Source: a virus. From it: 64,000 nucleotides of DNA. Position 1 is the stretch's first letter, and the number at the start of each line of letters is the position of its first letter. Both the position numbers and the translations under genes were made by a program. The notes beneath the pieces were generated by a model. That model saw only the letters and a program-made list of their open reading frames with translations. It had not been told where the DNA came from and made no database searches. Below are positions 6,436 through 63,579 of this stretch, piece after piece. The stretch lies in IMG/VR virus record IMGVR_UViG_3300006923_000005. One strand, 5' to 3'.

Positions 6436-6446
6436 GGTGCAACTAC

Positions 6447-8252
6447 GTGTTCTTCAAATTTGACGATAGTGATAAAGTATACGGAAATTTTCGAGCGGCC
6501 CCGCGGTACAAGCTGCAGGGTGGCAACTTTGTCACGTACACATCTGGTGTAATTGACACTGGGACGCCTGCAAAACTTTATCGTAGTTCATCTTTTGCTC
6601 CAGTGCCACTTGATGGTAATGCTGTTAAGTTTAAGAACGTTTTTGCGACGTCTGGCACCTGTGTATACAATCCTGATTCTGCACTCTTAAACTTTGCTAC
6701 TGCTACACTTGGCTGGGAAATGTCCTCTGCTGTTCGATTCTTCTCTGAATCGATTGGTGAGATAGCAGGCAGCAATCCAGAATCCCGATTACGATCAATC
6801 TATCGTGTTTTTGATCCCTGCTATGAAATGGCAGACAGTGAGCAAAGTTATACCATTGCAGACTCTGCGGCACCGAAACTTTTCTTTCATCATGCGTTTC
6901 ATGCGCACTCCTATCAGGATGCTGATTCAGCTTGGCTCGCGTCAGCTGACATCGAATTTGCTGCTGGGCAAACTTTCACCTATGAGACACGATACTTCGT
7001 TAATCCTGTAACATCATCCGTAGTCCAATATCTCTTCTCTGCGCGCCGTAAGGCTGCCGAAGAGGGCTTTCGGGTGTTCATCGATACAGATAATGAATTA
7101 GGCGTTGCATTCTCAGGCGCTCTCGGCACAATTCAATTTAAGCCAGGCGTGACTGCAAGTGTAGGCCAGTGGGCGCACTTCGCCTTTCAGTGGGATGGTG
7201 TCCTTCAATCGGGCTCATTCATGCATAATCTTGAAACTATGCATGTTTCAAGCTCTGACAACATTGCTGTGCAAGAAGTCGGTCCAGTTTGTGTTGGTGG
7301 GCGTGCAACAACAGCAGTGATCAATGTGAATCGTCTTCATGGCGCCTTGCACGAAACACGAATTTGGTCTGACAAGAGAACTCCTGCAGAGATGTCAGGT
7401 ACTTGGAACCGTTCACTAACCACTGATGAGGCAGCTGACTCTAATCTTCTGCATTATTGGCCTGCGACTGCTGGCTCTGGTTCAACTCTTGTTGATTATG
7501 GTGCTGCTACATCTCCTATTGATCTGCCACTTCACCCGACATTTCCTACCGACCGCAGATCATGGGGTATTAGCACCGATAGGCTATTCACATTCTGCGA
7601 AAGTGCTGTTTCACAGTACAGTGATGCAATGGTCTTTGATATTTCACATGTCTATTATGGCGACCAAATTAAGCGAGAGTCCATTGAGATTTGGGAAAAC
7701 TCTTTCCTGAGCGCATCGACAGCTGTTGGTGTACCTGACGAATCTGGCTCATTACCAGCCTACAATGCCACAAAGTTTATTGACGATGGCAACGGTTGCC
7801 TTATTCTCTCTGGCGGGCACACATGGAATAAGCTCGGGCGTGTTATGTATGATAGAGGAATTATCATGCTGACAAACCCACTGACATTGAATAATGGCCT
7901 AGGCCCACTGTCAACATCATCGATACATTTTCGGGCAGACCATCGCGTTTTTGAAAACATGTACCTCTGCCGGTTGCCAGCAAACACGCTGAACAGCACA
8001 ACCAACGCATCCTATGCAAGAATTGTTGACGCTGAGTCACTGTCAGGTTCGAGCATTGCTGATCACCCGTGTCCACCATCGCCGCTAACTGGGTCAAGTT
8101 ACAATTTCAGGGCAACAAAAGATGAAGTTTACGTAACAACAATTGGGATTTATAATGAACATTATGAGCTGGTTGCGACTGCAAAACTTGCGCAGCCTGC
8201 CAGAGTTACTCCAAACAGGCCCCTTTTGTTCAAGCTGAGGCACGATATCTGA
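6447..8252 (+). CDS. Putative receptor-binding or tail fibre protein with a ConA/LamG-like lectin region.
   Basis: GTG start after an AAGGTG RBS. The segment LHETRIWSDKRTPAEMSGTWN...LLHYWP resembles LamG/pentraxin-type domains. Confidence 0.55.
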   Translation: MFFKFDDSDKVYGNFRAAPRYKLQGGNFVTYTSGVIDTGTPAKLYRSSSFAPVPLDGNAVKFKNVFATSGTCVYNPDSALLNFATATLGWEMSSAVRFFSESIGEIAGSNPESRLRSIYRVFDPCYEMADSEQSYTIADSAAPKLFFHHAFHAHSYQDADSAWLASADIEFAAGQTFTYETRYFVNPVTSSVVQYLFSARRKAAEEGFRVFIDTDNELGVAFSGALGTIQFKPGVTASVGQWAHFAFQWDGVLQSGSFMHNLETMHVSSSDNIAVQEVGPVCVGGRATTAVINVNRLHGALHETRIWSDKRTPAEMSGTWNRSLTTDEAADSNLLHYWPATAGSGSTLVDYGAATSPIDLPLHPTFPTDRRSWGISTDRLFTFCESAVSQYSDAMVFDISHVYYGDQIKRESIEIWENSFLSASTAVGVPDESGSLPAYNATKFIDDGNGCLILSGGHTWNKLGRVMYDRGIIMLTNPLTLNNGLGPLSTSSIHFRADHRVFENMYLCRLPANTLNSTTNASYARIVDAESLSGSSIADHPCPPSPLTGSSYNFRATKDEVYVTTIGIYNEHYELVATAKLAQPARVTPNRPLLFKLRHDI

Positions 8253-8254
8253 TG
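8229..8254 (+). repeat. 26-bp direct repeat R1a (ttcaagctgaggcacgaYatctRatg). It spans the fibre-gene stop, an RBS and a start codon.
   Basis: Repeated at 9681-9706 with 2 mismatches. Confidence 0.7.
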
Positions 8255-9079
8255 AAAAAGAATGCACACTGGGATAATGAAGCTGATCTTGCCCACGGTT
8301 CTGGGGCTGCTCGGCTACGCAGGCTTGCTGTAAAGTATAATGTGTCACCTTTAGCAATTGCCTACGCGAAGAATAAGCTGGGTATTACACAATACAAGAC
8401 ACCCGGCAGGCATCCCTTCCTTAAGAGGACATATACACTGCAGACTGATCCTGCCGTTGCTGATCCTGCTGTTAGCCATGAAAAGCTTGCAGAGAAGTGG
8501 CATGTTTCTGCCCTAGCTGTAGTAGAACTTCGTGCTTTAAGGCCAAAAGAGATCTCTGCATTTAAACGAAAGCTTCGCGATTCCGCCGCAAAGAAAGAAA
8601 GAAGTGTTGCCAGGCAGCAGGCATTTAAAGTTATTCCTATTTGGCTCCGGGATGCCAGCGTTGTTGATTTTAACATGCCTACGCATATCGCCAGAAGAAA
8701 GGCTGGATTGGCTGACTATGATGTGAGATTCCTCCGCGAGGCTCTTAAGCCAATGGTTGAATTTGCTAAAAAGAACAGCTCGGGCCCTGGCCCGTGGCTT
8801 GCCTTTGAATTGCTTGAAAGTGTGGGACTGAAATCTGATAATCAAATTGCAGAGTATTTTGGAATTCCAGCAGCAGCAGTCACGGACGCACGTGAGGCTA
8901 AATCCAACTTCAGTGAAGCCGACTTCAGGGTGCTGCAGGCCGCAGCCGACCCTAGCTGGCGAACCAGGCCAGGCCTTTTAAAGCTTTATAAAGTAACTGA
9001 CGAAGCGGCAGTCGACGAGGTCCGCGAAAATCTTTATAACATGATCAACATAACAGCGCCAGCTAAAGATGGTGCTTAA
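8252..9079 (+). CDS. Protein with tandem HTH-like repeats (x-L-A-x-K/R-Y/W-x-V-S/P-x-x-A-x-x-x-x-K/R-x-x-L-G-I). It is a paralog of the central part of 20637-21770.
   Basis: At least three copies of the repeat motif are present: LAVKYNVSPLAIAYAKNKLGI, LAEKWHVSALAVVELRAL and IAEYFGIPAAAVTDAREA. Confidence 0.6.
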   Translation: MKKNAHWDNEADLAHGSGAARLRRLAVKYNVSPLAIAYAKNKLGITQYKTPGRHPFLKRTYTLQTDPAVADPAVSHEKLAEKWHVSALAVVELRALRPKEISAFKRKLRDSAAKKERSVARQQAFKVIPIWLRDASVVDFNMPTHIARRKAGLADYDVRFLREALKPMVEFAKKNSSGPGPWLAFELLESVGLKSDNQIAEYFGIPAAAVTDAREAKSNFSEADFRVLQAAADPSWRTRPGLLKLYKVTDEAAVDEVRENLYNMINITAPAKDGA

Positions 9080-9090
9080 GGAGTGACAAG

Positions 9091-9501
9091 ATGAAATATC
9101 CAACGATGAAATTTTTACTAGAAAGTGCTGATGCAAACAGCACAGTGACGATTGACTATGGCAGCTACGGTGTGTCTGCAGCTGGCCCAGGCGGATACGA
9201 TGTTGGTGAACGTGATGTTCCTGACCACTGGGAAATCAAAGCTGCGCATGGAACAGATGAGTGGCAAGAGGAATGGATTGGCAATCTCATGATTGACATC
9301 ATGAAGGACCCCAAGGTTAAATCTGTTGTTGACACTGAGTGGACTGGTCACTCTGGGACTACTGGCATTTATGACAAAATTCCAAAGCTGCGCTGGGCCA
9401 AGAAGGTTGCAGCAACGCTGCAAGATCCTGATTGGGGCCGAGGTGCTGAGCTTCCTGGCTTCTGGCCACAACATGATGATGATGATTTCATGGGTAATTA
9501 G
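9091..9501 (+). CDS. Leader-bearing protein (MKYPTMKFLLESA...), a putative virion-packaged cargo protein.
   Basis: ATG after a GGAGTGA RBS. The N-terminus matches the 11-member leader family. Confidence 0.6.
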   Translation: MKYPTMKFLLESADANSTVTIDYGSYGVSAAGPGGYDVGERDVPDHWEIKAAHGTDEWQEEWIGNLMIDIMKDPKVKSVVDTEWTGHSGTTGIYDKIPKLRWAKKVAATLQDPDWGRGAELPGFWPQHDDDDFMGN

Positions 9502-9516: not shown

Positions 9517-9625
9517 ATGTTTCCAACTGTCAGCCAACTGTTAAGCGAAGCGCAATCAAGCCAGCAAAAGCCTACACAGCCAATCCCTGCTGAAGTTATA
9601 ACTGTCAAAGGTGAAAGAGATTAAT
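9517..9625 (+). pseudogene. 36-codon remnant of a leader-family gene (MFPTVSQLLSEAQ...). It runs into the duplicated ruvC 5' segment and stops there.
   Basis: The leader is intact but the body is missing. The stop lies inside repeat R2a. Confidence 0.4.
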
Positions 9626-9671
9626 GCAATGCTACTCATCGGACTCGACGTCAGTACTTCCTGTACTGGCT
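9611..9671 (+). repeat. 61-bp direct repeat R2a: RBS plus the first 14 codons of the ruvC-like gene (MLLIGLDVSTSCTG).
   Basis: Identical to 10392-10452. Confidence 0.8.
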
Positions 9672-9680
9672 TCAGTGCTT

Positions 9681-9706
9681 TTCAAGCTGAGGCACGACAT
9701 CTAATG
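9681..9706 (+). repeat. 26-bp direct repeat R1b. It supplies the RBS and ATG of the kinase gene.
   Basis: Matches 8229-8254. Confidence 0.7.
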
Positions 9707-10390
9707 TTCCCCACAATGTCGTATTTACTTGAGTCTGATTATACAGACAACGTGTCCAAGGCAGATGTTGTAGAGGCACTGGCGCAGGAGGGATATGTTG
9801 GTGCTGTAGAAGTAGGTGACGGATTTCACGGAACTGTTTGGTCAGCGACTGACCAGCAGGGCCGGCAGGTTGCAATCAAAACTCACTATGCGTATCGGCT
9901 TGAGCTTGACACGATCAAGAGAGAGATTGCTGAGTATAAAAGGCTTAAGGGAGCGCTGCCAAGCAATTTGAGCAAGCACCTCATCCAGTTCTATCGAGTC
10001 TTCTTTTTGCCAATTGGCTTTGGCGATCACATGACACCGTGTGTTGTAGCTGAATTTCTTGAGCCGTTAAATTCTGCCGAGCAGAAAGAGGTTGCTTTTC
10101 TTTTTGGGTTGCTTGACGATGATACAGAAGTTCTTAGCTACACTGGGCCGTCGAATTGGAATGACCCTCTACCGCACCAAGATCGTCTAGATAAGATTGA
10201 AAAGCTGCGTGCCAAAGCAGGCACGTTGCAGACCATGGTAGATTTCCTTGAGGCGTCTAGTCTGTTCTGGGCTGACGTGAGTCCCGGGAATGTAATGAAG
10301 CGCCCACGGACAAAGGAGCTGGTTTTCATTGACTACGATTACTGGGTCATGCCAACTGTGTATCCCTATAAGTCACGCGGCCTTTATTAA
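9704..10390 (+). CDS. Eukaryotic-like Ser/Thr protein kinase with the family leader (MFPTMSYLLES...).
   Basis: Gly-rich loop GDGFHGTVW, VAIK beta3 lysine, alphaC Glu (REIAEYKRL), catalytic-loop-like WADVSPGNVM and a DFG-like FIDYD. It is in frame with the upstream duplicated ruvC start, but an internal ATG with the conserved leader is the likely start. Confidence 0.6.
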   Translation: MFPTMSYLLESDYTDNVSKADVVEALAQEGYVGAVEVGDGFHGTVWSATDQQGRQVAIKTHYAYRLELDTIKREIAEYKRLKGALPSNLSKHLIQFYRVFFLPIGFGDHMTPCVVAEFLEPLNSAEQKEVAFLFGLLDDDTEVLSYTGPSNWNDPLPHQDRLDKIEKLRAKAGTLQTMVDFLEASSLFWADVSPGNVMKRPRTKELVFIDYDYWVMPTVYPYKSRGLY

Positions 10391-10391
10391 A

Positions 10392-10452
10392 GTGAAAGAG
10401 ATTAATGCAATGCTACTCATCGGACTCGACGTCAGTACTTCCTGTACTGGCT
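10392..10452 (+). repeat. 61-bp direct repeat R2b, the functional 5' end of the ruvC-like gene.
   Basis: Identical to 9611-9671. Confidence 0.8.
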
Positions 10453-10958
10453 ACACTGTCTTTCGCAGATTCACTGAAGGCGATGAACTCGTCGGCATGG
10501 GATTCATCAAGCTAGGGAAGCACAAGACGCTGTTCGGCAAGATCAGCGCTATCACAGAGAAGATCGACGATCTCATTCGAGATGCGCGCCCCGGCGATAC
10601 AGAACCCGTCAAGTTCTACACAGCGGTCCCTCTGAAGCGCACAGGCTTCGGCAGTATCAATACAATCACACTTCTTTGGATGTTCCACGGAATGCTTTCA
10701 CAAGCGCTCTGGGAAAGTTATGGCATTGAATTGCTAACAATCAAAGAGAATGAAGCTCGTCGCCAATTTGGCATTGTGAAAGATAAAAAAGCAGGGATTC
10801 ATATCAAAGAAGCTGGCCGCCTGTTTACAATGAAGGATATTGAGATGTACAATTATCCTATGGAGTGGGAATACACCCGGTCCGGCAATGTAAAAGGTGG
10901 GACTTACGATATGACTGATGCATATGTCATTGCAAAGTTTGCCCTAGCACTCTGCTGA
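10410..10958 (+). CDS. ruvC: RuvC-like Holliday junction resolvase (RNase H fold).
   Basis: N-terminal LIGLDVSTSCTGY (catalytic Asp) and C-terminal DMTDAYVIAKFA, which matches the RuvC H-x-x-DA-x-AIA motif. Confidence 0.65.
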   Translation: MLLIGLDVSTSCTGYTVFRRFTEGDELVGMGFIKLGKHKTLFGKISAITEKIDDLIRDARPGDTEPVKFYTAVPLKRTGFGSINTITLLWMFHGMLSQALWESYGIELLTIKENEARRQFGIVKDKKAGIHIKEAGRLFTMKDIEMYNYPMEWEYTRSGNVKGGTYDMTDAYVIAKFALALC

Positions 10959-25001: not shown

Positions 25002-25062
25002 GAGAATTTAAACTGTTCACTAAACCAAGGATAGTTATAGAAGAACCTGTGAGAGAATATAA

Positions 25063-25896
25063 ATGACGCACAACAAGAAGAGAAATCTCGGTGTAACTTG
25101 CGATCTAATCGTGCACAACATTGCGCGCGATACAATGGATGGCAACAAGCAGCGTGCTCGGGTCGGTGTTAACATGCTAGAGCGATACTTTGGTAAAGGC
25201 TCTCCGCTTGTTGAAGAGTATGCTCCATTCAGCATAGTTCGTGAAATGCGAATTGCTGATTTAAGCCAGGCTGACAGAACACTTGATCGTATCTTAGCAG
25301 CTGCGGCCGCAACAACAACAAACCTTGACCATGTTAAAACATCATTGATTCATGAGATGAATCGTGTGTATGGTCAAGATGTCTGGGGTACAAAGATTCC
25401 AGATTATAAGCTGTACGCTTCACTGCAGCAATTGATTACTGCACGCAAGTCTGGAATGCTGTCAGAAGCGCGTCTTGTATCTGAGCGTAATGCAGTAATT
25501 AGCCACATCACACAACCACTTGCCGAAGGCAGCGATCTACTTCAAGAATTCGATGATCCTCTTGTTCAAGTGATGATGACAGCTAATTTCAATAAGCGTT
25601 ACGCTGAGCTTCCAGGCCCAAATAGAAAGCTAATTGAATCGTTTGTCACTCATGGCATCGCGGGCACATTAGACAAGTTTAACGAGAAGCTTGATCAATA
25701 TAAGCAGGTTCTTGATAATCGCGTTAATCGTGCACTTGAGTCAGGAAACCTCACAGAGCATGTTATCTCTACTGTTCGTGAAGCGCAGGCAGTTCTTGAA
25801 GCTGCCGAGGGTGATGAGAGAGTAACACTCATCATGGAATATGCAGATCTCTCAAGGGAGCTTGAGGGAAATGATCATGCAATTAACCAAAAATGA
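25063..25896 (+). CDS. Hypothetical protein in the head-gene cluster.
   Basis: ORF in the gene-dense region between portal and protease. Confidence 0.5.
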   Translation: MTHNKKRNLGVTCDLIVHNIARDTMDGNKQRARVGVNMLERYFGKGSPLVEEYAPFSIVREMRIADLSQADRTLDRILAAAAATTTNLDHVKTSLIHEMNRVYGQDVWGTKIPDYKLYASLQQLITARKSGMLSEARLVSERNAVISHITQPLAEGSDLLQEFDDPLVQVMMTANFNKRYAELPGPNRKLIESFVTHGIAGTLDKFNEKLDQYKQVLDNRVNRALESGNLTEHVISTVREAQAVLEAAEGDERVTLIMEYADLSRELEGNDHAINQK

Positions 25897-27796
25897 TAAA
25901 GAGAGTGTCTCAAATATGGCGCAGCAGACAGTTGACGAGCGTGAAGCCCAGCTCCCAGAAGGGCTCGCCGAGGGCCTAATTGACGATGAAGATATTGAAA
26001 GCCTCAACGTTTTAGGTAGTCAAGCAGAAGAAACATCGGATCAGCTCCGCGTTGTTGGTAATTACATCGACGATGTCGGTGAGGACTATCACGAAAATGC
26101 TGCAGCTGCCGTTCAAGGCATAACAGCTGGTGGCTCAGATTCAAAGCCTCTCAAGAAGCATATCTTTGATGAAGCAAGCATCGCCGATATTGAACCCCAT
26201 TCTAAGACTGCAGCATTTGTTCTGTTTCACAATCGCGGCAAATTCCTTGTAGCTTTGCGTGCACCCGGTGGCGATTGTGGTGAAACATGGAGCAACATCG
26301 GTGGCGCCCAGGAAGCTGAAGATATTATCTCTGGTGATCCGTACACGTCATTTGTTAGAACAGCTGCACGAGAAGTTGGTGAAGAAGTTGGCGCAATGCC
26401 TGTAACTGCGAAGATTCGCGGGCACTACATGCATGAAGGTGAAGGTTTCAAGGCGTTGAACTTTATTGCTGATATTGATGATAAAACTGCAGACAACTGG
26501 AAGTTTGAGCTTCAAAAAGATGAGCTCACTGAGATTAAGTGGGCAACATTAAGCGAATTGAAATCACAGGCAAGAGATTTGCATCCGGCCTTTCGGCGAA
26601 TGCTCTTTAGGTTCTATGGTTCTGATGGTGCTGAAGTTATGGATCCGTTTGAGGGTGAGCCAGGCGGCAATCTTAAGTTCAAGCAGGCTCCATCTCGCAA
26701 ATCAAAGTCACCGACAATACCAACTGGTCGAATGTCGACAGGTGAACCAAATGCGCTGTATGGTCGTGGTTTGTTCCAGGTCGATCACGTACTTCGGGAA
26801 GACGGACCATATAACATGGTCGGAAACCCAAGTAGCGATAATTATATGAGAGACTTGTTCACACCTGACACTATTGTCTGGTACGACGGTGATGGAGTTA
26901 ATATTCCATCCTCAATTTTTGGAGAGGGACGCATAATGTCTGATCTATTCACAGCACTTTTTGAGGATTGGTCACCTGACGTTCCTGATGCAGAGCTCGA
27001 AACAAAAGATATCAAGAAAGCGGGTGACAAATCTGCAATTGATAAAGAGCGGCCAGAAGATGTAGAGCGCTACGGTGAAGATTATATCTCTGATTCAAAT
27101 AGCTCTGATATGCGCTCACCATGGGCCAGCATGTCAGAATTGTTTGATGCTGATAATGAGTCTCCTGGCGCAAAAAAGCTTGCGAAGGCAAAGCCTGAAA
27201 GCAAAACAAATGCTGCTGACCAGCGTTTAATTACATATGAAGGTTCGGGTAAAATTGATAAGTCATGGCTTGATGAATTTGATCTCCTTGAGTGGTATCG
27301 CATCGCAGAGGCAAACGATGAGCCTGAGGGCGAAGATGAAAAGGGTCCTGATTCAAAAGCAGTAGATATCAACCTTGATAATGACGCAGATCCAGATGAT
27401 GTTGCGTCAGTAAATTACGACGACGTAAAAAATCCAAGTGATGATATAAAGCGCGTCCAAGATAGAGATGACAAGCCAGATGAACCTGAAGAGCCTGCTG
27501 ATGAACCTGAAGAGGGCGACCACGCTGACGTCGGAGAGGACGGTGAAATCGACGAAGAAACGTTGAAGCGAATTCAGAGTAAGCTTGCTTCGTTCATCAG
27601 CAGGTCACTTCAGTCTGATGACCCCATAAAAGTTTTTATGTCTGGCAACTCTGTTGTTATGCAGTTCAATCGAGTTTCAAATAAGCAAACGGTTCAGTTA
27701 GTCATTGCTTCACCATCTTCTGTAGCACTTAATGTGGGACGAAAGACTGATGATGAAGCAGTTGTTGGCACAGCAATCTCAAGCGTGAACCTCTAA
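25841..27796 (+). CDS. Nudix-hydrolase-domain protein with a long acidic, low-complexity C-terminal region (start uncertain, 25871-25916).
   Basis: Nudix-box-like GGAQEAEDIISGDPYTSFVRTAAREVGEEVG. D/E/P-rich tail. Confidence 0.55.
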   Translation: MQISQGSLREMIMQLTKNDKESVSNMAQQTVDEREAQLPEGLAEGLIDDEDIESLNVLGSQAEETSDQLRVVGNYIDDVGEDYHENAAAAVQGITAGGSDSKPLKKHIFDEASIADIEPHSKTAAFVLFHNRGKFLVALRAPGGDCGETWSNIGGAQEAEDIISGDPYTSFVRTAAREVGEEVGAMPVTAKIRGHYMHEGEGFKALNFIADIDDKTADNWKFELQKDELTEIKWATLSELKSQARDLHPAFRRMLFRFYGSDGAEVMDPFEGEPGGNLKFKQAPSRKSKSPTIPTGRMSTGEPNALYGRGLFQVDHVLREDGPYNMVGNPSSDNYMRDLFTPDTIVWYDGDGVNIPSSIFGEGRIMSDLFTALFEDWSPDVPDAELETKDIKKAGDKSAIDKERPEDVERYGEDYISDSNSSDMRSPWASMSELFDADNESPGAKKLAKAKPESKTNAADQRLITYEGSGKIDKSWLDEFDLLEWYRIAEANDEPEGEDEKGPDSKAVDINLDNDADPDDVASVNYDDVKNPSDDIKRVQDRDDKPDEPEEPADEPEEGDHADVGEDGEIDEETLKRIQSKLASFISRSLQSDDPIKVFMSGNSVVMQFNRVSNKQTVQLVIASPSSVALNVGRKTDDEAVVGTAISSVNL

Positions 27797-27807: not shown

Positions 27808-28407
27808 ATGGCTGATCGAAAAATCCTCTGCGAATTTTACCAGCTTGAGTATGATGCTGACAAGCTTCGTGAGGATGTGGAGGCTGGTCGTGACATCATC
27901 CTCTCTGGCCGGTGCCAGCATGCTGATTTGGGAAATGCAAATGAGCGCAAGTATCCGCGTGAAATTCTTGAACGTGAAGTTCAAAATTATCAAACACCCA
28001 TTCAAGAGCGAAGAGCGTATGGAGAGCTTGATCATCCACAAGACACTGTTGTAAACTTGCAGAAGGCATCACACATGATGACTGAAGTCTGGTGGGAAGG
28101 TGATGAAGTTTTTGGAAAGCTTAAGCTAATGGGAACCCCGACAGGCCAAATTGCTGAGGCAATCCTTAAGGCAGGCGGAGTATTAGGAATTAGTTCACGC
28201 GGAGTTGGTTCGACACAAGCCTCTGGTGGCTTTGATGTAGTCCAAGATGATTTCCAATTAATTTGCTTTGATTTAGTATCTGAACCATCAACACCCGGTG
28301 CATACGTGCTACCAGAAGGCAAACGGATCTTGCGGCCAAGAGAGCGAAATGATCGCATCACCAGGATTGCAAACAATATAATTTTCCACAAGCGTGGCAA
28401 GGAGTAA
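27808..28407 (+). CDS. 21: Prohead core protease (T4 gp21 family, peptidase U9).
   Basis: RKYPREILEREVQNY, GELDHP, ISSRGVGS and FDLVSEPSTPGAYV match gp21. Confidence 0.8.
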   Translation: MADRKILCEFYQLEYDADKLREDVEAGRDIILSGRCQHADLGNANERKYPREILEREVQNYQTPIQERRAYGELDHPQDTVVNLQKASHMMTEVWWEGDEVFGKLKLMGTPTGQIAEAILKAGGVLGISSRGVGSTQASGGFDVVQDDFQLICFDLVSEPSTPGAYVLPEGKRILRPRERNDRITRIANNIIFHKRGKE

Positions 28408-30136: not shown

Positions 30137-30198
30137 AGCTTTTCTAATTAGTGCTACTATCTGGTGCTAGATATTTAACAGGATAATAGAGTTAAACT

Positions 30199-31236: not shown

Positions 31237-31247
31237 TCGGACTATAA

Positions 31248-31427
31248 ATGGCGAAGAATGCAGTTAGAGTGTCGGTGGCAAGAAGAGGTAATGATACGAA
31301 TCAAAAACTTATCAAGCGCTTCTGTCGAAAAGTACAAAATTCAGGTATTCTTGACGAAGCAAGAGAAAGAATGTATTTTACCGGAACACGTAGAGCAAAG
31401 AAACGCCGCAAGGCCCGCAGAAAATAG
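31248..31427 (+). CDS. rpsU: Ribosomal protein bS21 homolog (59 aa).
   Basis: MAKNAVRVSVARRGNDTNQKLIKRFCRKVQNSGILDEAREKMYFTGTRRAKKRRKARRK matches S21 blocks (V-x-V...LRRFKR-x-CEK-x-G-V/I-L-x-E-x-R, basic C-terminal tail). It falls below the 60-aa ORF cutoff. Confidence 0.7.
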   Translation: MAKNAVRVSVARRGNDTNQKLIKRFCRKVQNSGILDEARERMYFTGTRRAKKRRKARRK

Positions 31428-31433
31428 TGTCAT

Positions 31434-31462
31434 TTGACACAAATAAACGAGCACTGTTATAA
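31434..31462 (+). promoter_or_regulatory. Sigma70-like promoter TTGACA-17 bp-TTATAA upstream of the scaffold and capsid genes.
   Basis: Exact -35 hexamer, a 17-bp spacer and a near-consensus -10, about 45 bp before the scaffold ATG. Confidence 0.45.
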
Positions 31463-31506
31463 CCCAAACGCTAGATATTTCTAGACAACTACCGGAGAAG
31501 CGATTA

Positions 31507-32479: not shown

Positions 32480-34357
32480 ATGACTAACATGAACGCACTC
32501 TTTGAGGGAATTCGAAACCCTAATAAGAAGGCTGATCACACGCGCATGCTGAATAAGTGGCGCAAGACTGGACTGCTTGAGGGGCTGTCAGGTGAACGTG
32601 CAGGTACGATGGCAGTGATGCTTGAGAACCAGGCCCGCGCGCTTTTGGCAGAAACTAACTCGCAGGGTGGCCTTGCTGGTACGGCTTCTGATGTGCAGGG
32701 CTTCCAGAACATTGCATTCCCCATGGTTCGCCGGGTGTTTGCAGGGCTTCTGGCCAATGAGCTGGTTTCTGTCCAGCCAATGAGTCTTCCCTCGGGACTA
32801 CTCTTCTACCTCGATTATCGCTATGGCTCTGCCCGCGGTATGGGCGCAGGCCAGGGTGGAAATGAGGCTCCGAACGACTCAATCTACGGTTCACCAATTG
32901 CTTCTGAATTGCAGGCAGGCGGTGCGTCAGGTTCAGGTGGTCCCTACGATCTCCTGGGCGCAGGTTACAGCCGTCGAAACGTTGTTGTGTCAGGGTCAGC
33001 AGTTGAAGGCGACATTGTCGCAATTTCAGGTGCGGTTACTTGGGCGCAGACTGATTTCGATCCTGCTCTTGCTTCACTGTACAACCTCAGTTCTTCAACT
33101 GATCTGGTCCCCGGCCTGTTTGTTGTTGCACTATCTGGTTCTTCAACGCAGCCTGGTTTCTTCTTCGGAAGCACAAACGCTGTTTATGATGAGTCACTTG
33201 TGACTTCACTGTTCCTGTACTCAGGTTCTGTTGTAACGGAAACTGATGAGTCAGATGATGAGGCTGGTTCAATTGCTTCTGCAGGTACAATGCCGGGTGC
33301 TGTTACACAGCTCCGCCGATTGAACAAGCTTGCAACCGGTATTACCATTGCTTCACAGGTTGGTATGGGTGAAGGTGCAGACCGCGTCCACGTTTACCTG
33401 ACTGGTTCGTACACTAACTTCCAGGCAAACGCAGGCTGGGCCGATGGTTCTGTCGCTGGTGCTAACCGTACTGTAGATAATGACATTGGTATTATGTTCC
33501 CGGTCTCCGAGAACCTGATTGTTGATGGTAATACAGCTGCTGTTAGTGTTGCACCGGCCTTCGAGTCTGATTTCGGTACTCTCAATGAGATTCCTGAAAT
33601 CAACATTCGAATCAACAGTGTGTCTGTTGTGTCCGAAACTCGAAAGCTCAAGGCAGTCTGGACTCCAGAGCTTGCGCAGGACCTCAACGCATACCACAAC
33701 TTGGATGCAGAGGTTGAACTGACTCAGATTCTGTCTGAGCAGGTCGCACTTGAAATTGATCGAGAGATTCTCGGTGATCTTCTGAATGATGCTGTTACAA
33801 AGCGCTTCTGGAGCCGTGCACCTGGTAAGTTCGTCGACAAGACAACTGGCGTGATTGTCACAGACAACAACAACGGACCTCGCTTCACTGGTACAGTCCG
33901 AGAATGGTATGAGACTCTTGTCGAGACCGTGATCGATTGCGCGAACGAGATCCACCGCCTAACGCTCCGCGGCGCTGCAAACTTCCTGGTTTGCGGTCCT
34001 GAGATTGCGACGATCCTTGAGGCCTCTGTGGTCTACAAGCCTTCGCTCTCCGGCTTCGGTAACGAGGGCATGAAGATGACGATCGGTGCTGAGAAGCTCG
34101 GTACCTTGAACAACCGCTTCACGGTTTACAAGGACCCCTACTTCCCACGCCAGAAGATCCTCGTCGGTTACAAGGGTAAGAGCTTCCTGGAGACAGGATT
34201 TGTGTACGCTCCGTACGTGCCGCTTATCACTACACCAACGATCTTCGAGCCGGACGACTTCACACCGCGTAAGGGCATCATGACCCGCTACGGTAAGAAG
34301 ATGGTTCGCCCCGACTTCTACGGTGTTGTTACTGTCCTGGACCTCAACATCATCTAA
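32480..34357 (+). CDS. 23: Major capsid protein (T4 gp23 family).
   Basis: LNKWRKTGLLEGL...MVRRVFAGLLANELVSVQPMSLPSGLLFYLDYRYG aligns with the T4 gp23 N-terminal region. There is a likely gp21 site at ALLAE-T. Confidence 0.9.
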   Translation: MTNMNALFEGIRNPNKKADHTRMLNKWRKTGLLEGLSGERAGTMAVMLENQARALLAETNSQGGLAGTASDVQGFQNIAFPMVRRVFAGLLANELVSVQPMSLPSGLLFYLDYRYGSARGMGAGQGGNEAPNDSIYGSPIASELQAGGASGSGGPYDLLGAGYSRRNVVVSGSAVEGDIVAISGAVTWAQTDFDPALASLYNLSSSTDLVPGLFVVALSGSSTQPGFFFGSTNAVYDESLVTSLFLYSGSVVTETDESDDEAGSIASAGTMPGAVTQLRRLNKLATGITIASQVGMGEGADRVHVYLTGSYTNFQANAGWADGSVAGANRTVDNDIGIMFPVSENLIVDGNTAAVSVAPAFESDFGTLNEIPEINIRINSVSVVSETRKLKAVWTPELAQDLNAYHNLDAEVELTQILSEQVALEIDREILGDLLNDAVTKRFWSRAPGKFVDKTTGVIVTDNNNGPRFTGTVREWYETLVETVIDCANEIHRLTLRGAANFLVCGPEIATILEASVVYKPSLSGFGNEGMKMTIGAEKLGTLNNRFTVYKDPYFPRQKILVGYKGKSFLETGFVYAPYVPLITTPTIFEPDDFTPRKGIMTRYGKKMVRPDFYGVVTVLDLNII

Positions 34358-34384
34358 ACAATGATGCTGGGCAAATAACCCAAT

Positions 34385-34430
34385 AAACGACAAACGCCCT
34401 GGAATGAAAGTTCCAGGGCGTTTGTCGTTT
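34385..34430 (+). terminator. Strong hairpin terminator after the capsid gene (20-bp perfect stem aaacgacaaacgccctggaa / ttccagggcgtttgtcgttt, 6-nt loop).
   Basis: Perfect inverted repeat ending in GTCGTTT. It is about 30 bp downstream of the gp23 stop. Confidence 0.6.
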
Positions 34431-34449
34431 CAGTGTGATAGTTATAACG

Positions 34450-35701: not shown

Positions 35702-36232
35702 TTATGTCTGTGCGACCAGGATGCCAGTTGCAACAATATTAAACACATCGATACTTGAGACATCATCTCTAGCTTTAAAAACAATCTTATCGTTTGTGCT
35801 GGCACGGAGCCGAAGACCCCACTGCAGCCCGTATGTCAACGCTGTATCAAGAACTGGGATATATCCCTCAGACGTTCCGCTAACATTACTTGCTCTAAAT
35901 GCTGTTGCTCCATCACCGAATGGTGGATTGCCATGAGCAAGTCTAATAAAATCAAAATTTGTTTTTAAGCCTTCATGCAGTGTAATACTGCCATTCGAAT
36001 CTGTAACCCATGTAAATTCTACACCGTTTGATAATGCAGCAATATTGCCAAATTTACTCAAGACTGCATTTGTATCAACTATTGAAAAAGAGATTGCTTT
36101 AACGTAGATGTCAGTAGCAAAACCCATACTATTGTAATTAGGAGACTGCCAGCTATTTTGCCCATTCTTAAAAGCATATGAAGCATAGTTTGAGCTAGAT
36201 ATATTGATGACATGCACCGTAGGAGGGCGCAA
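35702..36232 (-). CDS. Lone minus-strand gene for an Asn/Ser/Thr-rich beta protein of unknown function (start uncertain, TTG/GTG/ATG).
   Basis: The only minus-strand ORF not nested inside a + gene. The opposing + ORF (35601-35936) has a non-protein-like composition. Confidence 0.45.
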   Translation of the reverse strand: MRPPTVHVINISSSNYASYAFKNGQNSWQSPNYNSMGFATDIYVKAISFSIVDTNAVLSKFGNIAALSNGVEFTWVTDSNGSITLHEGLKTNFDFIRLAHGNPPFGDGATAFRASNVSGTSEGYIPVLDTALTYGLQWGLRLRASTNDKIVFKARDDVSSIDVFNIVATGILVAQT

Positions 36233-40629: not shown

Positions 40630-40693
40630 AAAAACACATTTGCCTTTGCTATACGATAGTTAGTTATAGAATTCTGCATAGGAGAACTGATCT

Positions 40694-43256: not shown

Positions 43257-43406
43257 ATGAAGAGTATGGTACAATTGCTGACTGAGGCAGCGGGGTCGGG
43301 AGATTCCGTTGCTTTCGTCAAGGATCAGCCAGGCGAGGACCATGAATCGATTGATGCCTACATGCGAGAGCTGTTGGCAACAAGTAGCAAGAGTGTGGAG
43401 TGGTAA
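43257..43406 (+). CDS. 49-aa ORF that starts with the family leader (MKSMVQLLTEAAG...).
   Basis: Leader motif. Lies 2 nt upstream of the next gene, in a different frame. Confidence 0.4.
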   Translation: MKSMVQLLTEAAGSGDSVAFVKDQPGEDHESIDAYMRELLATSSKSVEW

Positions 43407-55433: not shown

Positions 55434-55586
55434 ATGAAGTTTCCAACAATCACTGGTCTCTTAACAGAAGCTGAAGGTGCCTCACATCTTGTTAAAGCTT
55501 TGCTGAAATACAAAGATGACCAGGCTGTGATGGCCATGCCAGGACTATACACACCTGGGAGCCCACACTGGAAGAAGGACACATAA
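55434..55586 (+). CDS. 50-aa leader ORF (MKFPTITGLLTEAEG...). It is in frame with the downstream metallopeptidase gene across a single TAA.
   Basis: Same frame as 55590 (both coordinates divisible by 3). Only TAA-CGC separates the two ORFs. Confidence 0.45.
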   Translation: MKFPTITGLLTEAEGASHLVKALLKYKDDQAVMAMPGLYTPGSPHWKKDT

Positions 55587-55589
55587 CGC

Positions 55590-57557
55590 ATGAAGATTAA
55601 CGAAGATAACAGGCGAGTAGACACACTTCGCAACCGTGAGTTATGGGGAGCTGTCAAGAAGTTCATTCACAGTAAGGGTAAGCCTGACGTAAAGTTTCAG
55701 ACACGCCATGATAGAGAAACTGTTGGGCGGGCAGATGATGGTGACAAAATCCACTTGGCTCCTGCGTCAGATGTCAACGTCCTTAGAGTTATTGATGGTG
55801 ATAAAGTTGTAGTCAAGAAAGGCAGTAAAGAATATACATTCGCGCCGTCTTCATTACTCATTATGAACCTCGACGATCTTCCACTCAATCGTAAGCCTGA
55901 GGGTGTTGCCAAAGAAGAGCGCTTTCTTAAGGATGCACAAGCAGGGGAGCTTGAGATTGAGGGCCTTGATTACATTCCTGGGTCTGTAAAGTACGTCGGG
56001 AAGAGCCGTAAGAAATCAGACTTTACAATCCAGGAAAAAGATGGCACTGTTTATAACGTCTCATTCAAGTATCTTGGCGCTGGGCAGCCATCAATAATGT
56101 CAAATCTTCCAAGGCCATCAAGGGATGAGCCATGGTTGCAGACGATGATTAAGCATGAGGGTCTCAATTCTGATCATGTTGAAGAGCTAATGAAGCTTGG
56201 CATGATGAAGAAGGGTTTCCCATATTGGCATGATGATTTGGGAATGGATGACGCTGTGTTCAAGGCGCTTACCCGGGCATTCACAATGTATCTTGATCGC
56301 CACGGTGTTGTTGATCCTGTAAACGCGGTTATGACTGCCAAGGATCCCGACCTGAAGGATATTCTTTTCTTCAGATCATTCGATGATTTCTGGGATGTCC
56401 ATGGTGGGAAGGTCCACTTTGTTGCTGACACAAAAACGACGTTCAGTATAAAGTTATACACATCAGATAAAGAGCGTGAGAAGAAGGACGAAGCTGACAA
56501 GCTCGCCAAGCAAGAAAAGAAGATGGATGAGGCTTCGCACAACTTGCTTAATCTTCTTGCCGAAGGTCCCATTCCTATCAATTCGAGTTTTGTGAAAGAA
56601 ATTACAAACGAGCTGCTTCGAAAGCTCTATATCAAAATTAAGATTGGTGATGCTGAGAAAACCTTACTTGAACTTGTTGGCGGTGATGAAGAACGTGCGT
56701 TAGTTGCCATTGGTTTTGATGAAAAGATTGAGGGAACGAACCAAAAGATCTATGTCAAGGCTGGTTTATTTGTTGGAGAAGCAAGCGGTCCAGAGAAACT
56801 TTTTGCAAAAACAAATGGTGCAGCTGGTGTTGAGGATGGCGAATATAAAATCGGTATCAATCTCAATAGTTCAATTGTTGCTGGCGATCTTCTTGTTATT
56901 TATGACATTGACCATGCTTCGCTTGTCGAATCCTTTGAAGCGATTGTCGCTCATGAACTGACACACATTCGAGACAATGCAGTGACAGCAAAGAAAGATT
57001 GGGGCGAAAAGCAGATTAACAAGTATGAGCGGCAGCGTGCGTCTACAATGAAGAAATTCACTGGTTTCAATGATAGTTGGGCTGGTGAGCTGGCGTATTT
57101 GACTGACATGCCTGAAATTAAGGCTCGTGAATCTGAAACAGTGCATCTTATTAGAACGCATCTGCCACAACTTCTTGGCGATCGTTATACAACAGATAAT
57201 CATCCGCATATTTGGCCAGCAGCTAGAAAAAATAAGCTGATCAAGAATATTGTCATGAGTAAGAAGTTCATGCAGCGTGATCTTCATACGTTGATTAATA
57301 GTCAAAAATATGAAAAACTGCAAGGCCTAAAAGCATTTCGAAAGTTTCGGCGCAAGATTTTGCAAACAGCAGTTGCAGCAGCGCGTGATGAACTTAAGAA
57401 GCATTATGATAAGCGCAGCGCTGGAATGCGAGAACTTGCTGATGCTGTTGTGATGGATGAAGTAATTAACGACTACTGGTACGACATGGGTGCCGATAAG
57501 CCTGACGACTTTGAAAAGTTTCGGGCAGAAGCAAGAAAGAGATTATGGAGCAAGTAA
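55590..57557 (+). CDS. Putative zincin-like metallopeptidase (HExxH).
   Basis: AIVAHELTHIRDN contains HELTH, and the surrounding protein is long and helical. Confidence 0.5.
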   Translation: MKINEDNRRVDTLRNRELWGAVKKFIHSKGKPDVKFQTRHDRETVGRADDGDKIHLAPASDVNVLRVIDGDKVVVKKGSKEYTFAPSSLLIMNLDDLPLNRKPEGVAKEERFLKDAQAGELEIEGLDYIPGSVKYVGKSRKKSDFTIQEKDGTVYNVSFKYLGAGQPSIMSNLPRPSRDEPWLQTMIKHEGLNSDHVEELMKLGMMKKGFPYWHDDLGMDDAVFKALTRAFTMYLDRHGVVDPVNAVMTAKDPDLKDILFFRSFDDFWDVHGGKVHFVADTKTTFSIKLYTSDKEREKKDEADKLAKQEKKMDEASHNLLNLLAEGPIPINSSFVKEITNELLRKLYIKIKIGDAEKTLLELVGGDEERALVAIGFDEKIEGTNQKIYVKAGLFVGEASGPEKLFAKTNGAAGVEDGEYKIGINLNSSIVAGDLLVIYDIDHASLVESFEAIVAHELTHIRDNAVTAKKDWGEKQINKYERQRASTMKKFTGFNDSWAGELAYLTDMPEIKARESETVHLIRTHLPQLLGDRYTTDNHPHIWPAARKNKLIKNIVMSKKFMQRDLHTLINSQKYEKLQGLKAFRKFRRKILQTAVAAARDELKKHYDKRSAGMRELADAVVMDEVINDYWYDMGADKPDDFEKFRAEARKRLWSK

Positions 57558-58009
57558 TAAACATCGCGACCCCAGGCTTCAGCTTGAAGGATCCACCCCA
57601 ATTCAGTTTTTCACTTGATTTAGAGCGCTTTGATTCTGTATCAGTAGAGCTGCAAGGATTTATTGAAGAGCAAACCGCAGCTGTACCTGGCTTTGTTGGT
57701 GAGATGATGCTCGCCGAAGCGCGCTGGATGGCAAACCAAAAGAATATTGCTGAATTTATTACTGACTCAATTGGAACCGACGCTGACCGCTTTGTTGTAT
57801 ACATCGCACCTTCTACGATTTATTATGGAGGTATGTTAATCATCAAGGAAATCTTGGATCTCTATTTAACAACAGTCAGGAAGTATCCAAGCCACGAGGG
57901 CAGAGTTGCTTTGAAGCTTGTTGATGACGGTTCTGGGAATGAAGCCTTTGATTTCGTCAGGGCTCACCTCACAGGGCTTGGTCATAAATTTGAGGTTATA
58001 AAACTGTGA
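57545..58009 (+). CDS. Hypothetical protein.
   Basis: ATG overlaps the previous stop. Confidence 0.45.
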   Translation: MEQVINIATPGFSLKDPPQFSFSLDLERFDSVSVELQGFIEEQTAAVPGFVGEMMLAEARWMANQKNIAEFITDSIGTDADRFVVYIAPSTIYYGGMLIIKEILDLYLTTVRKYPSHEGRVALKLVDDGSGNEAFDFVRAHLTGLGHKFEVIKL

Positions 58010-58224
58010 GTGCTCCTCGTTATATGGTTACACTGTCTGTTCCTGGGACGAACCTGAAGAAGACAGTGAAGCTAAAAACAATCCTTGGCAACCATAAAGA
58101 ACTTGCTGCAGAGATTGCTTCAATGAATTGGAGGCAAATTGCTAATAACGCAGCTGTTGAAGCAGGCGGAGTTGGTGTCACAGCAGATGAATTTGGTGCG
58201 TATTACTTGGCACTTATTTCTTAG
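58006..58224 (+). CDS. Small hypothetical protein.
   Basis: GTGA overlap. Confidence 0.3.
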   Translation: MSAPRYMVTLSVPGTNLKKTVKLKTILGNHKELAAEIASMNWRQIANNAAVEAGGVGVTADEFGAYYLALIS

Positions 58225-59505: not shown

Positions 59506-59511
59506 TAGAAA

Positions 59512-59566
59512 CTGTTGGGTCCCCGACCGACATAGGCTTCGACGAGCTCGGTCGGGGACCCAACAG
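59512..59566 (+). terminator. Hairpin terminator after gene 32 (18-bp perfect stem ctgttgggtccccgaccg / cggtcggggacccaacag).
   Basis: Perfect inverted repeat starting 7 nt after the stop codon. Confidence 0.55.
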
Positions 59567-59594
59567 CCTTCGGGTATACACAGATTGGACTGCA

Positions 59595-59876
59595 GTGGAA
59601 TACGTTTATAAAATGCCGTTGAGTGGCAACATTATCTTGCGAACCTCTGAAGAAATTACAGAGATGGAAGCAAGTCGCCGCGGCATTGAATTGATAAACG
59701 CTCTGTCAGCAGAGGACGACTTAAATTGGACGCTTACGCAAGCAGGTAATGTTCATGTCCATGATATTGGAGCATATCTTCACGCTGAAGATGAATATGA
59801 GATTGCCTTGAATGGTCTAACAATTGGCCGTGCCGAGTTAGCTGGCAGAATTCTTGAAAAGGCAAACGGAGAATAG
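59595..59876 (+). CDS. Small hypothetical protein (GTG start, or ATG at 59613).
   Basis: ORF. Confidence 0.35.
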   Translation: MEYVYKMPLSGNIILRTSEEITEMEASRRGIELINALSAEDDLNWTLTQAGNVHVHDIGAYLHAEDEYEIALNGLTIGRAELAGRILEKANGE

Positions 59877-61692: not shown

Positions 61693-62582
61693 TGGGCATT
61701 CCCAATCTTATGTTTGCTGGCATAAATACAGTCTACTATCATGAGGGTTGTAACGATGGTATGGCTGGTGCGTGGGCTGCTTGGTCTAATGAGCATGCAA
61801 GAAGAGATTGCAAATACATTCCATATAGTTTCGGACACAAGCCAAATGCCACTGACTACATTGATCGCAATGTTGTTTTCATTGATTCATGTCCACCACG
61901 TGACGCATTGCTTGAAATGAAGAAGCTTGCCAAGAATGTTTGGGTTCTTGACCACCACAAAACAGGTCGCGAGGAGTGTCAAGACATCGATGGAACTTAC
62001 TTCAATTATAACATGTCAGGCGCATCAATTGCTTGGCGCGCCTTTCATGGCAGCAAGAAAAAGCCACTTCTGATTTCGTATGCTGAGGATATTGATCTGT
62101 GGAAGTTTAATCTTCCGATGAGCCGAGCAGTGCAAACAGCACTCTATAATGTACCTTTTACGTTTGATGATTTTGATGCGCTTGCTGTGAACAGTGTGTT
62201 CAAGGAGCTAATAACTTCAGGAATTCAATTAACAGAGTATCGTGACAACATTCTTGATACAATTGCAAGAAACGCCCAGCGCTCTGTATGCGTTGTTGAT
62301 AGCCAGACCTATGAATTTGTTGCAGTGAATATCTCTTATTTCCATAGTGCCATGGGTGATAAACTTCGGCATGATGCTGATTTCGCTGTGATGTGGTACA
62401 TGAAAGCTGATGGGACAATTAAATTTGGGCTACGGTCAGCGCGCAGCTTTGGGGCTGATGTGTCTGTGATTGCAGCTGCATTAAATCCGCATGGCGGAGG
62501 TCATGCAAATTCTGCTGGCGCAATTGTCACAGTTGAAACAGCAGTGAAATTCCTCAACGGAGATTTTGACGATGGTGACTGA
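61677..62582 (+). CDS. DHH-DHHA1 phosphoesterase (NrnA/nanoRNase-like).
   Basis: YHEGCNDGMAGAW (motifs I and II), DHHKTG (DHH) and GGGHANSAG (the DHHA1 GGGH motif). Confidence 0.7.
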   Translation: MDEALMGIPNLMFAGINTVYYHEGCNDGMAGAWAAWSNEHARRDCKYIPYSFGHKPNATDYIDRNVVFIDSCPPRDALLEMKKLAKNVWVLDHHKTGREECQDIDGTYFNYNMSGASIAWRAFHGSKKKPLLISYAEDIDLWKFNLPMSRAVQTALYNVPFTFDDFDALAVNSVFKELITSGIQLTEYRDNILDTIARNAQRSVCVVDSQTYEFVAVNISYFHSAMGDKLRHDADFAVMWYMKADGTIKFGLRSARSFGADVSVIAAALNPHGGGHANSAGAIVTVETAVKFLNGDFDDGD

Positions 62583-63579
62583 TAAACTTGCCCCTCTTGA
62601 CGATCCAACTGGAAGACGAATTATCCTCGTAGACTTCCTCAACATGTTCATTCGTAATTATGCAGTTATTCCAACACACAACCCTAGAACAGGTGAGCCA
62701 AATGGAGGAACATTTGGCACGCTGCGTTCGTTGACTGCTGCGATAAGAAAGCTTAAGCCAACAGATGTTGTCGTCGTAACAGACGGTGCTGAGGGAAGTG
62801 TTCGTAGACGCAGCATCTTTAAAGACTACAAAGGGAATCGAAAGCCATTTCGAACAAATCGTTTCTATAATCACGGGACAGAGGAAGATGTACATAGGAA
62901 TATGCTTGAGCAGGGTGCACGTGTGCGCCACTATTTTGAGAATATGCCGATTGCCTATGTGTCAATTGATAGGTGCGAAGCAGATGATGTGATTGCCTAT
63001 CTTGCCACTGATTTTTTCAGCAAAGAAGATGAAAAATTTATTCTTTCGTCAGACAAGGATTTTTACCAGCTGTGTAGTGACGAAGATAATACATATGTCT
63101 ACAACCAAGCATCTGATGTGCTGGTGACAGAGGTCGATGTACTTGCAAAATTTGGCGTATCACCAGCAAATACAGCAGTTGCAAGAGCACTCGATGGTGA
63201 CGGTTCTGACAATATCCCAGGTATTAAAGGGCTAGGGATGAAGTCAATTACGAAATGCTTTCCAGAGCTTGCTGAGCCAACGCCAGTTGAGCTTGATCAA
63301 ATTATAGCTTGGGCTGTTGAGCGTGATGGAACAAAGTTTGATAGGATTGTTGAGCAGCAGGATGTTTTTTATCGCAACTACAAGCTGATGCAGCTTGCTG
63401 ATCCAATGCTTTCGCCTGCGCAATTGACTGAGTTACTAGAAACTGTCACTGAAGAGCTAAAGCGAAGAAAGTTAAATCAGCTTGCATTTAGACACATGCT
63501 TGCTGAGGATAGCATTACGTCAATTGCTGCGGGCCGCGTAACGCGAGATTTGCAGTTCATTACAGAATTTAAGCAGTGA
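62572..63579 (+). CDS. rnh: 5'-3' exonuclease / flap endonuclease (T4 RNase H-like).
   Basis: ILVDFLNMFIRNY, SSDKDFYQL and the H3TH motif GSDNIPGIKGLGMKS. Confidence 0.8.
   Translation: MVTDKLAPLDDPTGRRIILVDFLNMFIRNYAVIPTHNPRTGEPNGGTFGTLRSLTAAIRKLKPTDVVVVTDGAEGSVRRRSIFKDYKGNRKPFRTNRFYNHGTEEDVHRNMLEQGARVRHYFENMPIAYVSIDRCEADDVIAYLATDFFSKEDEKFILSSDKDFYQLCSDEDNTYVYNQASDVLVTEVDVLAKFGVSPANTAVARALDGDGSDNIPGIKGLGMKSITKCFPELAEPTPVELDQIIAWAVERDGTKFDRIVEQQDVFYRNYKLMQLADPMLSPAQLTELLETVTEELKRRKLNQLAFRHMLAEDSITSIAAGRVTRDLQFITEFKQ

Follow-up and report, generated by a model that had tools for sequence, protein, structure and literature searches.

The locus described here consists of a 50-codon open reading frame (ORF) that begins with a short leader motif, and the 655-codon ORF that directly follows it, in a 64,000-nucleotide (nt) stretch of viral DNA (IMG/VR record IMGVR_UViG_3300006923_000005), the whole of which is referred to as the window. 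The source is an uncultured phage of about 176–179 kb that is represented in metagenomes only and for which public data contain hardly any relatives. Every gene in the window lies on the + strand, and packing is tight. The locus belongs to a replication module that encodes, in order, a 711-amino-acid (aa) protein of unknown function, a PolA-like DNA polymerase, the 50-aa and 655-aa products, proteins of 154, 72 and 128 aa, a gp32-like SSB, UvsX and a 5'–3' exonuclease, with DnaB, RNR and a DnaE-type polymerase encoded just beyond the window. The positions of the short ORF, its TAA stop, the CGC after it and the long ORF opening in the same frame (Table 1) are as a first-pass annotation of this DNA had given them; that annotation had further suggested that the stop might reflect a recent nonsense mutation, programmed readthrough or a sequencing error, and that readthrough would give a leader-tagged zinc protease packaged into the virion. 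The PolA gene itself ends in TAA, followed by GGC and then the ATG of the leader ORF, and PolA, leader ORF and 655-aa ORF run in a single frame, for which the chance is 1 in 9.

The junction between the two ORFs carries the start signals of a normal gene boundary. ATG 55590 is the earliest start that could follow the TAA at 55584, and the 655-aa ORF has independent start signals, namely this ATG 3 nt past the stop and an upstream AAGGA. Shine–Dalgarno (SD) matches of 5 nt precede 36% of the gene starts (21/59) compared with 7.5% of the internal in-frame ATGs (30/402). The layout of a stop, three further nucleotides and an ATG occurs three times in the window: between the prohead protease gene and the next ORF (28407/28411), between the PolA gene and the leader ORF (55430/55434) and at the junction under study. 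A reading frame is shared by 15 of the 58 adjacent gene pairs, and the in-frame arrangement of the leader and 655-aa ORFs is no more than the chance expectation. Like translationally coupled phage genes, the locus has a stop 3 nt before an ATG and an SD embedded in the end of the upstream gene, and it differs from such pairs in no unusual way; coupling is here read from this layout.

The TAA at 55584 is a genuine stop and not an assembly error. The ENA assembly ERZ27249139 (175.7-kb contig) matches the window without a difference across 13,968 nt around the locus; in a different sample (ERZ27249191), a strain variant has two single-nucleotide polymorphisms in 980 nt, both elsewhere than in the stop, and keeps TAA-CGC-ATG. 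The 50-aa product has been called as a gene by JGI/IMG and occurs as a Q30R variant on the ERZ27249191 contig, while the 655-aa product is identical on 4–6 contigs (JGI, Logan, ENA). A sequencing or assembly error that made a false stop, for which the shared frame and nothing else speaks, is refuted by the identical independent assembly, which includes 14 kb around the locus, together with the TAA-keeping variant, and we assign it practically no probability. A fused protein was not found among about 15 billion public proteins, and a search of 5.8 billion clusters with the 707-residue fused sequence recovered the 655-aa protein and nothing else; therefore, no assembly holds a fused ORF.

Programmed readthrough or suppression of the stop would yield a minor, packaged, leader-tagged 707-aa product beside a major untagged one of 655 aa. 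The shared frame and the reality of the leader fit such a scheme, and UAA followed by C is the weakest UAA tetranucleotide context in Escherichia coli. Against it, UAA is the least leaky stop codon and the main stop of this genome (27 of 48 scored ORFs), and at the background level of UAA readthrough, about 1e-4 to 1e-3, a cell would contain fewer than about one fused molecule. In phage Q-beta, readthrough of a leaky UGA extends the coat protein into A1. The present locus is alike in offering an in-frame extension past a stop, but the stop is UAA, no stimulatory signal was detected and the ORF after it has a start of its own. Nor did the junction show the usual signs of recoding: the 141 nt from 55560 fold like shuffled sequence (z = -0.19), so that no RNA structure is seen 3' of the TAA, Rfam gave no relevant match, and no tRNA gene, suppressor included, occurs in the window and 15 kb of flanking contig (about 79 kb examined). 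An alternative genetic code was considered and rejected, as every long ORF is intact when read with table 11 and most of them terminate in TAA. Promoter and terminator consensus sequences were not found at the junction either. With an SD of its own downstream, the locus leaves the readthrough proposal unsupported, and we regard it as highly improbable.

The designation of the short ORF as a leader, in comparison, is borne out by the window itself. Its first residues match a motif, M(K)[FY]P[TS][IVM]xxLLxE, present at the start of ten + strand ORFs, nine besides the one at 55434 (Table 1). A position-specific scoring matrix (PSSM) was built by leave-one-out, with the 55434 sequence excluded, and 127,924 six-frame positions were scored. 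The 55434 leader reached 19.4 bits and rank 10 of 127,924, all nine higher positions being the training leaders, while the best unrelated position reached 12.6 bits; no comparable scores were found off-frame or on the minus strand. Synonymous codons vary among the leaders, and conservation is therefore at the protein level. Beyond the leader, the bodies of these proteins are mostly unrelated, and neither ORF body of the locus has a paralogue in the window. Four of the leader genes lie between the terminase and protease genes and one directly past the capsid gene. In seven of the ten strong leaders LLxE is followed by A, S, V or I, and in the 50-aa ORF LTE is followed by A. Weaker leader-like starts also occur at 43257 and 43409. 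Searched as a degenerate DNA pattern, the leader gave no matches in viral contigs, 12 in metagenomes and 9 in genomes; these 12 and 9 matches are single, at a chance-level number and in unrelated genes (e.g. acyl-AMP ligases). A shared leader was not found in the head module of Microcystis phage Mel-JY01, the nearest cultured phage.

Table 1. Positions of the features discussed, numbered from the first letter of the window.
Feature	Position	Strand	Remarks
50-codon leader ORF (MKFPTITGLLTEAEGASHLVKALLKYKDDQAVMAMPGLYTPGSPHWKKDT; begins MKFPTITGLLTEAEG, ends ...KKDT)	55434..55586	+	ATG at 55434
Leader motif MKFPTITGLLTEA of the 50-codon ORF	55434..55472	+	Predicted cleavage after LTE (Glu12, codon 55467-55469)
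TAA stop of the leader ORF	55584..55586	+	CGC next, at 55587-55589
Shine–Dalgarno-like AAGGA	55575..55579	+	10 nt 5' of ATG 55590, within the end of the leader ORF
655-codon ORF, homologue undetected	55590..57557	+	ATG 55590; same frame as the leader ORF
HELTH (HExxH), residues 455-459	56952..56966	+	Context KIGINLNSS...FEAIVAHELTHIRD
PolA-like DNA polymerase gene, 411 aa	54195..55430	+	Pfam DNA_pol_A E = 6.7e-15; upstream neighbour, in frame with the leader ORF
Leader-family ORF MKYPTMKFLLESA, 136 aa	9091..9501	+	N-terminal motif
Short leader-only ORF MFPTVSQLLSEAQ, 35 aa	9517..9624	+	End lies within a 76-nt direct repeat
Leader-family ORF MFPTMSYLLESD, 228 aa	9704..10390	+	Weak kinase-like matches; gene caller picks the same start
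Leader-family ORF MKYLPTMRMLLEAT, 344 aa	19223..20257	+	Terminase on one side, portal on the other
Leader-family ORF MKFPTIQKLLLEAS, 377 aa	20637..21770	+	Multiple helix-turn-helix repeats
Leader-family ORF VKFPTIQKLTEVV, 142 aa	21767..22195	+	N-terminal motif
Leader-family ORF MFPTISNLLLEVT, 314 aa	24057..25001	+	Directly past the portal gene
Leader-family ORF MSQFPSMKQLLTEAF, 366 aa	34450..35550	+	Directly past the major capsid gene
Leader-family ORF MTAFPTMFQLLNEIS, 303 aa	44905..45816	+	Post-leader sequence similar to that of 24057
Leader-family ORF MKFPTITGLLTEAE, 50 aa	55434..55586	+	N-terminal motif
Weak, shortened leader-like ORF MKSMVQLLTEAAG, 49 aa	43257..43406	+	10.1 bits, borderline; codon score positive
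T4 gp21-like prohead serine protease	27808..28407	+	Pfam Peptidase_S77 E = 4.1e-30; PHROG head maturation protease E = 2e-49
Intergenic stretches with GATAGTTATA/GCTAGATAT	25002-25062, 30137-30198, 31237-31506, 34358-34449, 35937-36231, 40630-40693		

The head genes of this phage are of the T4 type. In addition to the gp21-like protease, the window encodes a large terminase (at 17501, part of the T4-type head module), a gp20-like portal (Portal_T4, E = 3.2e-70) and a gp23-like major capsid protein (Gp23, E = 2.6e-77). By capsid protein, the nearest cultured phages are Mel-JY01, Rhodothermus phage RM378 and Flavobacterium phage immuto, with 32–49% identity. The internal proteins of T4 share only a 10-residue N-terminal capsid targeting sequence (CTS), which routes them to the prohead core (PMC3012670, PMC9026906) and is then cut off by the gp21 protease after an L/I-x-E motif (PMC9026906). 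The T4 cargo set is diverse and includes anti-restriction proteins (PMC3012670, PMC9026906). Because the portal, prohead protease and capsid protein are all T4-like, we liken the leader motif to the T4 CTS with its L/I-x-E site, and the presence of T4-type head genes, the gp21-like protease among them, makes a virion-targeting role of the leader plausible. By this analogy, the motif is probably the capsid targeting and processing leader of the phage, and the gp21-like protease its presumed processing enzyme.

The likeness to the T4 system extends to several properties. In both, a short N-terminal peptide is common to proteins of one phage that are otherwise unrelated; it begins with MK and an aromatic residue and ends in a hydrophobic residue, any residue and Glu, fitting the gp21 L/I-x-E rule; its position and length are similar; a gp21-family (S77) protease, a gp20-like portal and a gp23-like capsid protein are encoded; and the tagged genes are scattered, with several inside the head module. 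The sequence LLTE/AEG of the 50-aa ORF (the slash marking the predicted cut) also resembles the maturation site of T4 gp23, FLTE/AEIG. There are differences too. The leader is about 12–13 residues long (MKFPTIxxLLxE), whereas that of T4 has 10 (MKTYQEFIAE); at least ten tagged ORFs occur in 64 kb compared with a handful in T4; and three of the tagged ORFs are only 35–50 aa long, below any T4 internal protein. Targeting and cleavage are documented for T4; here they are predicted from the sequence. The phage is, moreover, only distantly T4-like, with PolA and a DnaE-type polymerase in place of gp43.

The 50-codon ORF has the properties of a gene. In codon usage it falls among the in-frame scores of the phage genes; at most 0.15% of off-frame 50-codon windows match its score, and the part after the leader is coding-like as well. 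The 159 nt from PolA to the gene that follows are taken up exactly by this ORF. The possibility that the ORF extends PolA at its C-terminus was considered and rejected, as the polymerase ends about 40 residues past its HD motif, like Pol I. Short leader ORFs recur in the window. Only 2 nt separate the end of the ORF at 43257–43406 from the ORF at 43409, which is in another frame. Since the 35- and 49-aa leader ORFs also adjoin larger downstream genes, the small leader ORF represents a recurrent class and the shared frame at 55584 can be considered incidental; the two tight junctions, one in frame and the other out of frame, give no evidence that the shared frame matters.

The short ORF could also be a relic of cassette shuffling, that is, a truncated 5' end left by a former leader gene that lost its body, through replacement or cutting, as the 655-aa gene came into this variable slot, so that the two were never one protein and the remnant may be functionless. 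A 76-nt direct repeat (93% identical), with copies at 9608–9683 and 10389–10464 that are spaced by 781 nt, brackets the leader gene at 9704–10390. It duplicates the ribosome-binding site and first 20 or so codons of the downstream gene (MLLIGLDVSTSCTG...), and its first copy forms an in-frame fusion with the leader gene. The start of the downstream gene reads like the N-terminus of a RuvC-type resolvase; Pfam gave no family match. The repeat pair resembles a scar left when a cassette was inserted or duplicated. As the 35-aa leader ORF at 9517 ends in this repeat, leader genes do get rearranged. A relic at 55434 is further favoured by unrelated genes in the corresponding PolA–SSB interval of a syntenic relative, by the failure of phmmer to find homologues of the 655-aa gene among 1.84 billion representatives, and by the absence of the neighbouring 72-aa ORF from a close relative. 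Around 55434–57557, however, no repeat or junction scar was found, nor any meaningful repeat or insertion scar around 53.5–59 kb, and the short ORF keeps coding-like codon usage along its entire length, the exact fit to its gap and a canonical junction. We hold a relic to be a minor possibility.

Another alternative is a split gene, in which the gene of an ancestral leader-tagged protein of about 707 aa, packaged into the capsid, was cut by the nonsense TAA and the cargo is now made, untargeted, from ATG 55590. T4 provides a precedent in Alt, a large enzyme packaged via a short N-terminal propeptide (PMC9026906). Alt, an ADP-ribosyltransferase of about 75 kDa that is injected with the DNA, would be the model for the hypothetical fused product. 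The two ORFs are in one frame and no more than two codons apart, the upstream one is a leader plus linker with no obvious cargo domain, the other leader proteins in the window (136–377 aa) have their cargo attached, and a nonsense mutation is best tolerated where a restart codon is near. What speaks against a split is that an ATG and a well-spaced AAGGA stand exactly at the junction, that the identical junction type is found at two unrelated gene pairs, that the stop is fixed in both sequence variants across assemblies, and that the leader-like ORF at 43257 adjoins its neighbour out of frame. Unlike in Alt, a stop separates the leader from the enzyme-sized ORF, which has its own start signals and no sequence similarity to Alt. 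The fused version was not found in public protein collections, and intact fused homologues elsewhere, as expected of a nonsense-split pseudogene, were not found among the 5.8 billion clusters or by exhaustive phmmer. A split gene is unlikely in our assessment, though less so than a cassette relic. A broader form of the idea treats both ORFs as being, or having been, one capsid-targeted and injected Alt-like HExxH enzyme, with the TAA as an evolutionary or regulatory switch between a packaged and a cytoplasmic-only form and the leader perhaps a portable module with stubs at 9517, 43257 and 55434; this we consider doubtful, to about the same degree as the split gene.

The idea of a packaged zinc protease depends on the 655-aa protein, which the first-pass annotation had named an HExxH metallopeptidase. 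The HELTH motif is indeed present; the family assignment was not confirmed, as Pfam, PHROGs and NCBIfam gave no match above threshold. Among 20,158 predicted residues in the window HExxH occurs once, compared with 0.53 occurrences expected by chance, and the motif alone therefore carries no weight. Matches below threshold run across the HELTH stretch, to DUF5700, a putative Zn peptidase (E = 0.014, 15.2 bits against a cut-off of 25), and to HtpX (E = 0.048); because these profiles reward HExxH itself, their support is partly circular. A strand-like KIGINLN precedes a predicted helix with VAHELTH, and Glu residues 14 and 21 positions past the second His provide candidate third ligands (E473 and E480, from reading the sequence). 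VAHELTH is identical to the active-site heptapeptide of thermolysin, and the Arg after H-I breaks the PROSITE zinc-protease pattern. The protein is thus like the zincins (thermolysin M4, HtpX M48, DUF5700) in having HExxH in a predicted helix after a strand-like segment and zinc peptidases as its best sub-threshold matches; it is unlike them in lacking an above-threshold family match and a relative in PDB. AlphaFold2 without an alignment gave a mean pLDDT (a per-residue confidence score) of 36.8 for the full length and 42.5 for residues 395–560, both of low confidence and unusable for a fold search. No relatives were found in IMG/VR, GTDB genomes, cultured phages (tblastn) or PDB sequences, and phmmer against the same 1.84 billion representatives returned only the protein itself and one weak match to a cadherin-like repeat protein, which was rejected as an artefact of a short repeat motif. 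The HExxH may or may not be the mark of a zinc peptidase, and a leader-tagged zinc protease packaged in the virion finds no support.

Relatives of the phage place the 655-aa gene in a variable part of the replication module. PolA itself offered little: it has no relatives in IMG/VR, no protein besides itself reached E < 1e-10, and isolated phages showed only about 25% identity. Anchoring on UvsX revealed one close relative at 86% identity on a 4.4-kb contig (NODE_90461 of ERZ24794644). This contig begins within the 154-aa ORF homologue and misses the locus by less than 0.5 kb. The 72-aa ORF (58006–58224), which lies between the 154- and 128-aa genes, is absent from this relative (contig positions 1–330). 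On such comparisons of sequence, the small ORFs of the replication module turn over quickly. A more distant syntenic relative (UvsX 48% identical) was identified on a 70-kb contig of Logan SRR27686863 (positions 2389–9413), with the order PolA ... SSB-like, UvsX, exonuclease, DnaB, RNR ... DnaE. Its interval between PolA and SSB holds ORFs of 153, 107, 1120 and 256 aa, followed by a homologue of the gp32-like SSB (293 aa), and among these ORFs there is neither a homologue of the leader ORF or the 655-aa ORF nor an HExxH. Since this relative carries unrelated genes between PolA and SSB, the slot is variable and the 655-aa gene is a lineage-specific accessory.

Taken together, we favour, as probable though far from assured, that the locus contains two separately translated and probably coupled genes, one for a small leader-family protein and one for an unrelated accessory protein, and that their shared frame is incidental. 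Several observations weigh against this reading. The 50-aa ORF, in which a short helix-like stretch and a tail rich in Pro and Gly follow the leader, resembles a targeting module without cargo, and it is succeeded in the same frame by a large, leaderless ORF; a split leader–cargo gene would look identical. The leader ORF sits in a replication operon, outside the head module, and begins 3 nt past the PolA stop without an SD of its own, as do 39% of the starts here. Finally, protein, IMG/VR, GTDB and UvsX-anchored searches found no relative that carries the locus, and conservation of the stop is seen in near-identical strains only.

Under the two-gene reading, PolA, the leader ORF and the 655-aa ORF would probably be co-transcribed, with translation probably handed on by termination–reinitiation at TAA-GGC-ATG and TAA-CGC-ATG and the AAGGA aiding the start of the 655-aa ORF. 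By analogy with the T4 CTS, the leader would carry tagged proteins into the core of the assembling prohead, where the gp21-like protease may remove it after L-x-E; in the 50-aa product the cut would follow LTE and leave an internal peptide of 38 residues. The 655-aa product would be leaderless and made on its own, from a gene in a lineage-specific, variable slot between PolA and the gp32-like SSB.

Several further features of the window were observed. The phage combines a T4-like head with a non-T4 replisome, which includes a short PolA with a polymerase domain only, a separate 5'–3' exonuclease (62572–63579), DnaB and a DnaE-type Pol III alpha of 1191 aa, with no family B gp43. In the major capsid protein (32480–34357, 625 aa), the Gp23 Pfam domain covers residues 314–614 only, and tblastn with this protein splits into two pieces for most of the nearest phages, RM378 giving one piece at 96% coverage; the pattern suggests that the N-terminal half contains an additional domain or a large insertion. 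Between the portal and prohead protease genes, 25841–27796 encodes a 651-aa protein with a NUDIX domain (residues ~123–255). Two intergenic motifs, GATAGTTATA and GCTAGATAT, recur directly 5' of structural genes and may be late promoters; the T4 late promoter TATAAATA is not enriched in the window (3 found compared with 1.35 expected). Long GC-rich palindromes past the SSB gene (59506–59612, ggtccccgaccg...cggtcggggacc) and past the capsid gene (34390–34430, aaacgccctgg...ccagggcgttt) are probable transcription terminators.

The in-frame stop that drew attention to this locus is itself unimportant, a normal boundary between two genes. What is new is the leader family, a capsid-targeting-type leader of new sequence, M(K)[FY]P[TS][IVM]xxLLxE, in at least ten genes of a distantly T4-like uncultured phage. 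If these leaders act like the T4 CTS, they would mark proteins that are packed into the head and probably injected, and that are thus candidates for host-takeover or anti-defence proteins; they would also add a second natural tag to those with which foreign proteins can be loaded into phage capsids. A route by which the set of cargo proteins may be shuffled is hinted at by the three leader-only mini-ORFs and the leader gene that lies between 76-nt repeats.

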